From positions 5,452 through 69,451 of the forward strand of contig DATHGT010000133.1 of assembly GCA_035317605.1 (NCBI GenBank): a stretch of DNA of 64,000 bases, in the 5' to 3' direction. Source of the stretch: Candidatus Acidiferrum sp. (lineage in GTDB: Bacteria; Methylomirabilota; Methylomirabilia; Rokubacteriales; CSP1-6). The position numbers and the translations under genes were made by a program. Positions 49,801 through 52,232 of this stretch are shown one piece after another (positions within the stretch are counted from its first letter, which is position 1; each line of letters starts with the position of its first letter). Below the pieces are notes generated by a model. It saw only the letters and a program-made list of their open reading frames with translations. It was not told where the DNA came from and made no database searches.

Positions 49801-50592
49801 CTACCACGCCGTCCAGCCCCCATCGACCGGAAGATTCACTCCGTTCACGTAGGACGCCGCGGCCGACAACAGGAACACGACCGGGCCGGCAACCTCTTCC
49901 GGGCGTCCCACCCGACCGAGCGGGACTCGCGCCGCCAGCCCGCCCGCGAGCGGGGACGTGGTGTCCTTGGGGATGGGGCCCGGGGACAGGCTGTTGACGC
50001 GAATTCCCAGAGGCGCGAGATGGCAGGCCAGGTATCGCGTCATCTGGATCAGCCCCGCCTTGGTGGCTCCGTAGTGCACGGGGTTGTTCATTCCGGAGTC
50101 CCCGTACACCGCGGGATCCGGGCTCACGGTCCCGTACATCGAGGCGATGTTCACGACCGACGACCCGCCCGACACCTCCTGCGCCCCGAGCCGCAGGAGC
50201 GGCAACAGCTCCCGCACCAGCAGGAAGGGCCCCGTCAAGTTGAATTGACAGGCGAGCAGAAAATCCTTGGCGTCGATGGTCGACAGGTGGCCGATGCGCC
50301 CGAGGTAGGCGTTGTTCACGATGCCGTGGAGACGATCGAACCGGCCCGCCAGCTCGCCACACAACGAGAACACCCCTTCCGGACTGGCCAGGTCGGCGAC
50401 CGCGACGTGGCATCGGTCGCGGAGCGTGGGCGCGCAGCCCGTGTGCACGGCGTGCAGCGCCGTCGCGTCGCGTCCGCTCATGATGAGTTCGGCGCCAGCT
50501 TCCAAGATCGCGGCGACCATGGCGGTGCCGAGATACCCCGACGCTCCGGTGAGGAGCACCGTGCGATCGCGGAGGGACTCGGCGGGTGTCAC
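49801..50592 (-). CDS. short-chain dehydrogenase/reductase (classical SDR)
   Basis: GTG start 50592..50590 in a GTGA overlap. TGASGYLG cofactor motif, NNAYLG, and the catalytic YGATKAG (YxxxK). Confidence 0.8.
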   Translation of the reverse strand: MTPAESLRDRTVLLTGASGYLGTAMVAAILEAGAELIMSGRDATALHAVHTGCAPTLRDRCHVAVADLASPEGVFSLCGELAGRFDRLHGIVNNAYLGRIGHLSTIDAKDFLLACQFNLTGPFLLVRELLPLLRLGAQEVSGGSSVVNIASMYGTVSPDPAVYGDSGMNNPVHYGATKAGLIQMTRYLACHLAPLGIRVNSLSPGPIPKDTTSPLAGGLAARVPLGRVGRPEEVAGPVVFLLSAAASYVNGVNLPVDGGWTAW

Positions 50593-52232
50593 GACCACGT
50601 CCGGGGATCGAGCAAGCGCCCGGACACCCTGGGCAAGGTCCGGCCCACGCGTTCGACGTCGGCCCACGCCAGCGGCGCCTCTCGTGCGGAGTCGATGATC
50701 TCCCCCAGTTGCCGGGGCGTCTCCGCGCCGACGACCACGCGGTCGACCCATGGAAAGGCCCGGACGTAGGCCAGACACAGGTCGACGCGACTGCGACGAT
50801 TCAAGGCGCGACACAGCGTGTCCAGGCCGTCGACGATCTCCTTCGCCGCGTCGGCCCACGACGGCCAGGCGGACACGTCGCTCACCAACAGCCCCTGGAG
50901 GAAGACGCTCCTCACGTGGATGGTGACGTCGGGGCGCGCGGCCAGGGCCGACTGAAACGCCGAGCCGCACCACCGTCGATCCAGGACGTTGAAGGGCACC
51001 TGCAGGTGCCCGACGTCGCGATGCCCGAGGCAGCCGACGGCCTCGTCGGGGGAATACACCGAGACGCCGATGGCGCCGACGATTCCCTCCCCGACCATGC
51101 GCGCGAGCTGAGCGAGGGCCGCCCCGTCCCACCGAAAGATATCCTGGCTGCGGTGGAACATCATCACGTCGAGGGTCCGCCGTCCGAGGTCGTGCAATGA
51201 CCGCAACACGCGGGCCTCCACGGCGGCCAGCACCTCGGCCCGCGTGGCGCCGTCTTCCACGGCGGACAGCGAGACCTTGCTGACGATGTGCACGTCCTCG
51301 GCGCGCCGTTCATGCAGGTAGCCCCCGAGGCGCGACTCCGCCCGCCCGTACGCGCGCGCGGTATCCAACCAGGTCACCCCGCTGGCCCGAGCGAGATCGA
51401 GCATCGACACGACCTCGTCGTCGGACGGAACACCGTGGGTGTTGGCGATGCCGTACGCCGCCCCCAGCTGAGCGGTGCCCAGGGCCAGGATGGCCGGGCC
51501 GGTGCGCGTCCCCTCGCCGACGGCGGGCCTCGGCGGCGCGGACTTGGCCAAGCGGGTCACCAGGACGTCCCAGGGCGTCCCGAGAGGATCCGAACCGTCG
51601 CCAAAGATCTCCGTCATCCGAAGATAGTCGTCGAGGGTGTCGATCGTACAGCGCAGGGACGAACGATCGCCTCGGACGATCTCGTTCCGTTGCAGGGACC
51701 GCGATCGACGGGAGGGCCGGCGCATCGACGTGGTGACGTGTTCGCGTTCGAAATCGGTGGCCGCGGCATCGGCGCGCTGCCGGAGGACGCCGACCCTCAG
51801 CACCTCCGCGCTCAAGCCGTACGGCAATCCGTCGGAGGGGGAGTCGGTGCCGAGGTAATCGAGGTCGTGCTGGACGAACCGCCGCAGGAGCAGTTCGATG
51901 AACGGGCCGTCGGGCAGCGGATTGTCGGCCGTCGCTCTCACCGCGATGTCGTCATCGGCAAAGTCACTGAGGCAAGACACGAACCGACCGAGGACGTCGT
52001 CCAGGCTCCCGCGGCAGACCGTCACGCCGGCCTGCCCCGCCAAGCGGACCAGCTCATCGTCCGACTCGTGCTTCGAGGTCGCCAGCACGACGTCGAGTCC
52101 GGTATTGCCGAGACGTTTCGCGCAGAGGATGGCCAGCGGGAACCCACCCAGGGGCAGCAGGACTTTGCCGGGCAGGCGTCTCGACGTCGTCCTGGCCTGC
52201 ACGATGACGCGGACGCGTACCCCTTCGATCAC
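50589..52232 (-). CDS. bifunctional fusion: N-terminal SpsF/PseF-type cytidylyltransferase plus C-terminal aldo/keto reductase
   Basis: 547 aa. Residues 1-230 have RVIVQARTTSRRLPGKVLLPLGGFPL (CTP_transf_3 / CMP-pseudaminate synthetase-like). Residues 250-547 have LGTAQLGAAYGIAN...GVTWLDTARAYG and the rest of the AKR barrel. Confidence 0.75.
   Translation of the reverse strand: MIEGVRVRVIVQARTTSRRLPGKVLLPLGGFPLAILCAKRLGNTGLDVVLATSKHESDDELVRLAGQAGVTVCRGSLDDVLGRFVSCLSDFADDDIAVRATADNPLPDGPFIELLLRRFVQHDLDYLGTDSPSDGLPYGLSAEVLRVGVLRQRADAAATDFEREHVTTSMRRPSRRSRSLQRNEIVRGDRSSLRCTIDTLDDYLRMTEIFGDGSDPLGTPWDVLVTRLAKSAPPRPAVGEGTRTGPAILALGTAQLGAAYGIANTHGVPSDDEVVSMLDLARASGVTWLDTARAYGRAESRLGGYLHERRAEDVHIVSKVSLSAVEDGATRAEVLAAVEARVLRSLHDLGRRTLDVMMFHRSQDIFRWDGAALAQLARMVGEGIVGAIGVSVYSPDEAVGCLGHRDVGHLQVPFNVLDRRWCGSAFQSALAARPDVTIHVRSVFLQGLLVSDVSAWPSWADAAKEIVDGLDTLCRALNRRSRVDLCLAYVRAFPWVDRVVVGAETPRQLGEIIDSAREAPLAWADVERVGRTLPRVSGRLLDPRTWS

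Follow-up and report, generated by a model that had tools for sequence, protein, structure and literature searches.

A probable EpaA/EpaB-type module for CMP-8-epi-pseudaminic acid in an acidobacterial pse operon

We analysed a 64,000-nucleotide stretch of contig DATHGT010000133.1 (the window in what follows) from an acidobacterial metagenome-assembled genome (MAG) of Candidatus Acidoferrum, focusing on one gene of its pseudaminic acid (pse) operon (50589-52232) that encodes a cytidylyltransferase (CT) and an aldo/keto reductase (AKR) in a single polypeptide, and on the next gene (49801-50592), which encodes a classical short-chain dehydrogenase/reductase (SDR). This pair is a new, distant member of an already known kind, that of the EpaA and EpaB proteins of Acinetobacter baumannii, and the module is widespread. 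We consider it probable that the two proteins act as an EpaA/EpaB-type module within the acidobacterial operon and that their output is CMP-8-epi-pseudaminic acid.

A single reading frame for two domains inside a pse operon

The fused gene and its parts are laid out in the window as follows (aa, amino acids).

50589..52232, minus strand: EpaA-like bifunctional protein, 547 aa; GTG start at 52232, stop codon at 50589-50591; full-length homologues exist
51537..52232, minus strand: SpsF-type CT domain, aa 1-232; from Pfam, PDB 6oew and conserved columns
51507..51536, minus strand: flexible interdomain linker, aa 233-242; pLDDT below 50 in the AlphaFold2 model, length and sequence variable in the family alignment
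50592..51506, minus strand: AKR TIM-barrel domain, aa 243-547, with the tetrad D290/Y295/K319/H360; from Pfam, alignments with 4exa and 3n2t, conservation and Foldseek

The open reading frame (ORF) at 50589..52232 is one continuous frame of 547 aa that starts with GTG and contains no internal stops, and GC at the third codon position (GC3) stays between 0.78 and 0.92 across all of its 50-codon blocks, including the linker. The same 547-aa protein was found, residue for residue, in an ENA contig, in a Logan assembly made independently from run SRR7026200 and in the NCBI record HMH50534.1, which carries the name 'aldo/keto reductase [Candidatus Acidoferrum sp.]'. Since the protein is identical in independent assemblies, since there is no internal stop and since GC3 is continuous, a frameshift or an assembly artefact is excluded as the origin of the CT-AKR fusion. 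A preliminary description of this DNA, made from its letters alone, had proposed the fusion and had named a sequencing error or an internal stop between the domains as one thing that would speak against it; we looked for both and found neither. The idea that a lost stop or a frameshift merged two genes could draw on related loci in which CT and AKR are separate genes (L067-L069, L074 and L075) and on one MAG (L070) in which the fusion appears to be frameshifted, but more than 1,000 full-length fused homologues, some of them from isolates of Acinetobacter, Pseudomonas and Vibrio with complete genomes, stand against it together with the identical ORFs and the continuous GC3, and we give it practically no credence.

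A Pfam scan of the 547-aa ORF bore out the presence of both domains in one polypeptide: CTP_transf_3 (PF02348) covers aa 9-172 (E 7.8e-18, 65.5 bits for a cut-off of 22.6) and Aldo_ket_red (PF00248) covers aa 249-528 (E 3.7e-23, 82.5 bits for a cut-off of 24). The AlphaFold2 model of the fusion, with a mean pLDDT of 90.7, shows a disordered linker (aa 233-242) between two domains that are each well folded, and its pTM of 0.59 leaves the orientation of one domain relative to the other undefined. Linker length is unconstrained in the family, as shown by a Legionellaceae MAG (L062:9992-11776) whose fusion has a much longer, charge-rich CT-AKR linker of ~60 residues.

In an alignment of 35 family members, the CT domain retains the QARxxSxRLPxK loop, the TADNP motif and the TIDTxDD acidic motif, with Q12, R14, S17, R19, K23, D103, N104, T196, D198 and D202 among the conserved residues. 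It matches a Leptospira cytidylyltransferase (6oew) both in sequence (E 3.4e-20) and in fold (TM 0.82-0.84, rmsd 2.4-2.6 with Foldseek), whereas the NCBIfam model for PseF (TIGR03584) gave no match to the fusion protein at E<=0.01, the only CT-type matches being weak ones to KdsB models. Judged from these comparisons, the domain is of the SpsF type and not of the PseF type, so that of the earlier label 'PseF/SpsF-type' the SpsF part stands and the PseF part does not. The domain resembles the stand-alone SpsF-type proteins of Bacillus subtilis and Leptospira borgpetersenii (6oew), which share PF02348 with it; like PseF (TIGR03584; Aeromonas caviae 6ifd), they differ from the window protein in having no fused oxidoreductase. 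In B. subtilis, SpsF is needed for the use of legionaminic acid in spores and is a predicted CMP-legionaminic acid synthetase.

The AKR domain appears to be catalytically intact, as judged by its motifs. In alignments with two AKRs of solved structure, 4exa and 3n2t, its D290, Y295, K319 and H360 coincide with the motifs DTAxxYG, SK and H, and across the 35 members Y295, K319 and H360 are invariant while D290 is at least 90% conserved; the loss of this Tyr/Lys/Asp/His tetrad, a possibility raised in the preliminary description, was checked for and the tetrad is kept. With Foldseek, the AKR half matched the folds of AKR14A1/YghZ, DepB and AKR11 (E about 1e-16), and searches of PHROGs returned only generic AKR and FabG-like matches.

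The genes around the fusion that make up the operon are all on the same strand.

55945..56949, minus strand: PseB, inverting UDP-GlcNAc 4,6-dehydratase, 334 aa; NCBIfam TIGR03589, 522.5 bits, above the cut-off of 407.75
54791..55948, minus strand: PseC aminotransferase, 385 aa; NCBIfam TIGR03588, 477 bits, above the cut-off of 423.5
53805..54761, minus strand: PseG, UDP-2,4-diacetamido-2,4,6-trideoxy-beta-L-altropyranose hydrolase, 318 aa; TIGR03590, 161.2 bits, above 153.55
52762..53808, minus strand: NeuB-family nonulosonate synthase (PseI-like), 348 aa; NeuB 330 bits and PseI 282 bits, both under the cut-offs; Pfam NeuB and SAF
52229..52762, minus strand: PseH-like GNAT N-acetyltransferase, 177 aa; NCBIfam PseH 77.9 bits, under the cut-off of 93.1; Pfam Acetyltransf_3
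49801..50592, minus strand: EpaB-like classical SDR, 263 aa; Pfam adh_short_C2 2.7e-42, with TGxxxGxG and YxxxK present

The co-directional order is therefore PseB-PseC-PseG-PseI-PseH-[CT-AKR]-SDR. Both junctions of the fused gene are 4-nt overlaps that read GTGA, the first combining the stop of the PseH-like gene with the GTG of the fusion and the second combining the TGA of the fusion with the GTG of the SDR gene, and the fusion and the SDR are translationally coupled inside the pse operon. The earlier statement that a classical SDR follows immediately was confirmed in the form of this 263-aa adh_short_C2 protein, and the nonulosonic acid setting also proved right, with PseB, PseC and PseG passing the NCBIfam equivalog cut-offs; a complete Pse5Ac7Ac gene set (PseB, PseC, PseH, PseG and PseI, with the synthase and the GNAT protein below cut-off) adjoins the fusion.

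EpaA/EpaB and a widespread family

Two proteins encoded on A. baumannii prophages, EpaA and EpaB, were shown by complementation and nuclear magnetic resonance to turn Pse5Ac7Ac into 8-epi-Pse5Ac7Ac (Sharar et al. 2025, Commun Biol; PMC12053666). EpaA has 542 aa, with CTP_transf_3 at 5-192 and Aldo_ket_red at 239-525, and the adjacent EpaB is an adh_short_C2 protein of 262 aa (PMC12053666). The window pair has the same build, a 547-aa protein with its domains at 9-172 and 249-528 followed by a co-directional 263-aa SDR, and both pairs go with the Pse pathway. They differ in their setting, since the epaA/epaB pair is prophage-borne, lies far from the K locus and acts beside a host PseF (PsaC), whereas the window pair is chromosomal and coupled within the pse operon of an acidobacterium whose DNA is of 68% GC. 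A tblastn search of 50,697 phage records with the window protein as query gave no match, and two scans of IMG/VR with family alignments gave partial and distant matches only. EpaA of A. baumannii itself was absent from the 120 listed matches of the Vibrio- and Acinetobacter-seeded searches, which did contain chromosomal Acinetobacter homologues.

K-locus versions of the pair have also been reported. In the A. baumannii locus KL264, psaC (PseF) is replaced by epaC and epaD, whose products show 42.5% identity to EpaA and 56.7% identity to EpaB, respectively, and for which the authors predict 8-epi-pseudaminic acid (8ePse) or 'a novel isomer' (bioRxiv 10.64898/2026.07.20.739706). A K locus of Acinetobacter pittii (L098) has the same layout as KL264, and a closely related homologue from Acinetobacter calcoaceticus (P0266) is 35% identical to the window protein in an alignment that spans the whole of the latter (E 2e-103). 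As in most related loci, the two KL264 genes stand in for psaC within psaA-psaB-[..]-psaD-psaE-psaF; the differences are that the function of EpaC/EpaD is a predicted one and that the order there is B-C-[CT-AKR]-SDR-G-H-I, whereas in the window it is B-C-G-I-H-[CT-AKR]-SDR. In the nab cluster of Vibrio sp. B9-25K2, which is of the Pse type and lacks a NeuA homologue, a bifunctional SpsF-like CT/AKR gene is likewise followed by a dehydrogenase gene (PMC7371886); this is the same fusion with a dehydrogenase, but it was noted bioinformatically only and its product was not determined (PMC7371886). With EpaA/EpaB, the nab cluster and epaC/epaD on record, the fusion cannot be called the sign of an 'undescribed tailoring step', as it had been at the outset.

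Nor is the fusion unusual, although CMP-nonulosonate synthetases had been described as 'normally stand-alone'. All of the 120 best homologues (42-88% identity, about 520-580 aa) have both Pfam domains, the Vibrio- and Acinetobacter-seeded searches each gave more than 1,700 clusters, and a scan of one genome per species found relatives in at least 496 species genomes. These belong to the Acidobacteriota, Pseudomonadota (Marinobacter, Pseudomonas, Halomonas, Vibrio, SAR11 and roseobacters), Bacillota, Actinomycetota, Elusimicrobia, Verrucomicrobiota, Planctomycetota and Gemmatimonadota, and to the archaeon Methanospirillum stamsii.

We then fetched 79 species-representative loci, 58 of which were informative in that they had enough flanking DNA. 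An uninterrupted fusion was present in 63 of the 79, and an SDR homologue was directly adjacent in 56 of the 58 informative loci (49 downstream, 7 upstream), while a PseI homologue was found within 10 kb in 53 of the surveyed loci. The commonest order in these relatives is PseB-PseC-[CT-AKR]-SDR-PseG-PseH-PseI, and the module therefore occupies the usual pseF slot. No other PF02348 gene was found within 10 kb of the fusion in the contexts with Pfam annotation, and a phmmer search seeded with NeuA turned up an additional CT close to the fusion in just two of those loci, L028 and, with a weak match, L077.

Not all loci have the parts in one gene. Natural splits, in which CT and AKR are separate overlapping genes followed by the SDR, were found in single-cell genomes of Pelagibacteraceae/SAR11 (L067 and L068), in L069 and L075 (Sphingomonadales) and in a member of the Colwelliaceae (L074), and these versions support a functional link among the three parts. 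Other loci are permuted or have the parts unlinked (L080-L083, with AKR before CT in L082 and L083), and L070 resembles a frameshifted fusion. The CT-AKR and SDR pair also occurs on alphaproteobacterial plasmids, and SpsF-type CTs stand alone beside pseI in some genomes, among them Azospirillum, L076-L079 and L084.

Three further loci were recorded in this survey. On plasmid pHL2708Y3 of Maritalea myrionectae (L001:3298-6045), a 915-aa triple fusion combines CTP_transf_3 and Aldo_ket_red with a C-terminal BNR_2/Asp-box (sialidase-like) beta-propeller, and the locus also has an SDR directly upstream, a NeuA-type CMP-synthetase, a NeuB-family synthase and an alpha-2,3-sialyltransferase. The chromosome of M. 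stamsii Pt1 (L065) encodes a full-length fusion at 42% identity, an adjacent SDR at 58% and PseG and PseI homologues; this methanogen copy implies a transfer of the module between domains of life. Finally, plasmid p1 of Bacillus cereus JHU (L002) and other B. cereus/thuringiensis megaplasmids carry a stand-alone AKR gene and, immediately after it, an SDR gene near a spore coat protein gene, without a fused CT; this AKR is about 31% identical to the AKR half of the fusion (E about 1e-38), and the two genes may be a CT-less form of the redox pair.

Proposed chemistry and its alternatives

In the pathway that we propose, PseB, PseC, PseH, PseG and the NeuB-type synthase would produce Pse5Ac7Ac. 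The AKR domain and the SDR would then invert the C8 hydroxyl, one of them oxidising the C8-OH to an 8-keto group and the other returning hydride to the opposite face, and the SpsF-type CT domain would make the CMP-activated sugar. The output would be CMP-8-epi-pseudaminic acid or a derivative of it, possibly after amidination or methylation by the WbuX/HisH/WbuZ proteins and the methyltransferase encoded further down, and would then enter a surface polysaccharide. We infer that the window copy has the same regio- and stereochemistry as EpaA/EpaB.

The distribution of roles between the two oxidoreductases can be approached through related systems. The SDR would be the 8-ketoreductase that sets the stereochemistry and the AKR domain the dehydrogenase, because EpaB is 41.5% identical to AciE (PMC12053666) and because a swap from AciB to AciE alters only the C8 configuration of the product (PMC5595891). 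AciB and AciE, which belong to acinetaminic and 8-epi-acinetaminic acid synthesis, thereby suggest that EpaB-related SDRs are the setters of C8 stereochemistry; they differ from the window system in that their partners are AciA, AciC and AciD, with no AKR, and in that they serve the legionaminic acid series. The opposite assignment, with the AKR carrying out the re-reduction, has a precedent in the epimerisation of deoxynivalenol (DON) by DepA and DepB, the latter (PDB 8hwn/7utf) being one of the fold neighbours of the AKR domain. DepB is an NADPH-dependent AKR that re-reduces 3-keto-DON to 3-epi-DON after a separate dehydrogenase has oxidised it, and it therefore provides a precedent for an AKR in an oxidise-and-re-reduce epimerisation, although its substrate and its partner (a PQQ dehydrogenase) are unrelated and the identity is only about 21%.

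The order of the steps is roughly evenly balanced. CT could act first, with the AKR and the SDR working on CMP-Pse, an order that would fit both the domain and gene order and the proposal made for ElaA/ElaB/ElaC; or the free sugar could be epimerised and then activated by a CT specific for the 8-epimer, which is equally suggested because in Ela and Epa alike the standard CT gives way to one supplied by the module. In the A. baumannii locus KL49, ElaB is the CT, ElaA a Gfo/Idh/MocA oxidase and ElaC an SDR reductase, and C8 is inverted via an 8-keto intermediate, as proposed on the CMP-sugar (PMC13656337). The two systems are alike in that a dedicated CT and two NAD(P)-dependent oxidoreductases, one of them an SDR, replace the standard CMP-synthetase and invert C8. 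They differ in that Ela has a Gfo/Idh/MocA oxidase instead of an AKR, consists of three separate proteins and acts on legionaminic instead of pseudaminic acid. Since ElaA is a Gfo/Idh/MocA enzyme, we treat ElaABC as an analogue only, and we rejected membership of the window genes in that system, their CT being fused to an AKR and their pathway genes being of the Pse type and not of the Leg type.

Several points weigh against the assignment of the window pair to 8ePse synthesis. The window protein is tied to EpaA by architecture, partner, context and an indirect chain of identities (35% to the Acinetobacter K-locus homologues and the 42.5% reported for KL264 EpaC against EpaA), EpaA itself having been compared by description only, and at 35-45% identity the regio- or stereospecificity could differ from that of EpaA/EpaB. 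No biochemical assay of any family member was found in the literature searched, and even in EpaA the roles of the CT and AKR domains have been assigned by inference. Within the operon, the synthase and the PseH-like GNAT protein score below the NCBIfam equivalog cut-offs. Lastly, the fusion CT is not demonstrably the only activating enzyme here, given a second, NeuA/PseF-like CT of 248 aa located ~10 kb downstream (39464-40210, minus strand); this protein scored 72 bits with the PseF model (cut-off 205.7) and matched both NeuA (PDB 9ftb) and PseF (6ifd) at E about 2e-13. The proposition that the CT domain is the sole cytidylyltransferase of its cluster thus fails for the window, while it holds in most related loci.

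Part of this doubt can be put as an explanation of its own, namely that the window pair belongs to the same family but carries out another chemistry, at another centre, on C5 of the hexose precursor 2,4-diacetamido-2,4,6-trideoxy-L-altrose, or towards a keto or reduced product, yielding an isomer or derivative other than 8ePse. The identity of just 35% to the Acinetobacter homologues would allow this, the related SDRs AciB, AciE and ElaC do differ in stereochemical outcome, and further tailoring genes are present in the cluster, namely those for a methyltransferase, the WbuX triad and PhyH. We nevertheless consider it unlikely, since the only member tested experimentally gives the C8 epimer and since architecture, partner SDR and position in the pse operon are uniform across phyla, which argues for one conserved reaction.

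More improbable still is the preliminary proposal that the polypeptide carries out a novel net reduction, dependent on NAD(P)H and linked to CMP activation within the same chain, with either a keto intermediate or the nonulosonate itself as substrate. That redox chemistry is coupled to CMP activation is a sensible reading, given the CT-AKR fusion, the SDR and the nonulosonic acid cluster. AKRs are usually NADPH-dependent carbonyl reductases, the tetrad is intact here and the structural neighbour DepB is a reductase. A net reduction is nonetheless not borne out, because the published function of the same architecture, by EpaA and EpaB, is an epimerisation that needs a partner SDR, the AKR perhaps even being the oxidising enzyme. 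In addition, the SDR is nearly always co-inherited, so that reduction by the AKR alone does not correspond to a conserved logic, and the architecture has already been described. We would place at least as little weight on the view that the CT is a plain non-orthologous replacement of PseF, that the AKR is a non-catalytic, KidO-like sensor or regulator responding to NAD(P)H and that the SDR is unrelated. It is true that the regulator KidO (NCBIfam NF011432) is the top NCBIfam match of the AKR half and that SpsF-type CTs stand alone by pseI in Azospirillum and the other loci mentioned above. But the match reaches only 65.7 bits, far under the equivalog cut-off of 244, hence we dropped KidO membership; the tetrad shows little or no variation among family members; the SDR is adjacent in 56 of 58 informative loci; and EpaAB change the sugar. 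The reading that we retain is that of an EpaA/EpaB-type epimerising module.

Neighbouring sugar genes and wider meaning

Directly after the SDR gene, the minus strand continues with putative tailoring genes.

49029..49772, minus strand: SAM-dependent methyltransferase, 247 aa; Pfam Methyltransf_31/25/12/11; directly after the SDR
47758-48960, minus strand: WbuX amidotransferase, first gene of an acetamidino-forming triad; NCBIfam TIGR03573, 316 bits
47133-47747, minus strand: HisH-like protein of the triad; 219 bits
46345-47103, minus strand: WbuZ/HisF-like protein of the triad; 276.7 bits, slightly under the cut-off

The methyltransferase may provide a further tailoring step; tblastn found homologues of it at 39-62% identity in L014, L029 and L067-L069, and L087 has a neighbouring methyltransferase. 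Methyltransferase and WbuX/HisH/WbuZ genes also trail the CT-AKR/SDR pair in unrelated metagenomic contigs. Together they suggest an N-acetimidoyl and/or methylated sugar derivative, the target being either the nonulosonate or another sugar of the polysaccharide, as a pathway of the UDP-ManNAc3NAcA type is also hinted at. Next to the triad (43533-46287, minus strand) are genes for a 642-aa protein of the LIC12162 family (precomputed Pfam PF27859; a weak NCBIfam match of 32 bits), which is a candidate nonulosonate transferase, and then for a PhyH Fe/2-oxoglutarate dioxygenase, and both genes are kept after the WbuX triad in a related contig.

Other regions of the window also hold carbohydrate genes. 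The second CT may be the PseF equivalent of the operon or may activate another sugar. Directly after it comes a Gfo/Idh/MocA dehydrogenase (region 38361-40210, minus strand) that is very similar to 3q2k (3e-74) and 3q2i (2e-70), two structures that we take to be WlbA. Downstream of this pair, genes on the minus strand at 31973-37410 may form a second sugar-modification module. Their products are a class I/II aminotransferase resembling HisC/CobD (36265-37410), an NAD-dependent epimerase/dehydratase (35363-36367), a protein of 481 aa in which a HAD hydrolase domain was assigned at the C-terminal end but no domain in the N-terminal half (33955-35400), and a surface carbohydrate biosynthesis protein of TIGR04326, the LIC13510 family (31973-33958). 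Further along (22833-30074, minus strand), two paralogous AsnB-type glutamine-dependent asparagine synthases (22833-24749 and 28227-30074) bracket GT4 and GT2 glycosyltransferases, a pattern typical of uronamide-forming steps in polysaccharide clusters. On the other side of the operon, divergent genes on the plus strand (60404-63775) encode a member of the UDP-glucose/GDP-mannose dehydrogenase family (60404-61696), an NAD-dependent epimerase/dehydratase (61697-62665) and a right-handed beta-helix protein (62729-63775); between them and a regulator gene lies a 495-aa ORF (58724-60211) with no Pfam match.

For the window itself, the annotation of HMH50534.1 shifts from 'aldo/keto reductase' to a probable bifunctional CMP-synthetase/C8-oxidoreductase of the 8-epi-pseudaminic acid pathway, and the acidobacterial module could, with the amidotransferase, the methyltransferase and PhyH, lead to a new N-acetimidoyl or methylated derivative of 8ePse. 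If true, the coupling of a CT to oxidoreductases, with epimerisation at the level of either the CMP-sugar or the free sugar, would represent new enzymology.

A more general proposal, which we advance tentatively and hold to be possible but somewhat short of even chances, is that EpaA/EpaB-type modules are the native, ancestral replacement of PseF in hundreds of species from many phyla and in at least one methanogen, that 8ePse or an unrecognised isomer is a surface sugar widespread in the environment and routinely mis-annotated as 'pseudaminic acid', and that operons of this kind were the source of the phage genes. The module is found at the pseF position in very diverse organisms (SAR11, Marinobacter, Pseudomonas, Vibrio, Acidobacteriota, Actinomycetota, Bacillota, Elusimicrobia and Methanospirillum), and surface 'pseudaminic acid' predicted from genomes may therefore often be wrong at C8, with consequences for glycan-targeting antibodies, for the prediction of phage receptors and for capsule typing. 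Altogether, the breadth of the family suggests that sugars of the 8ePse type are far commoner than the Acinetobacter literature implies.

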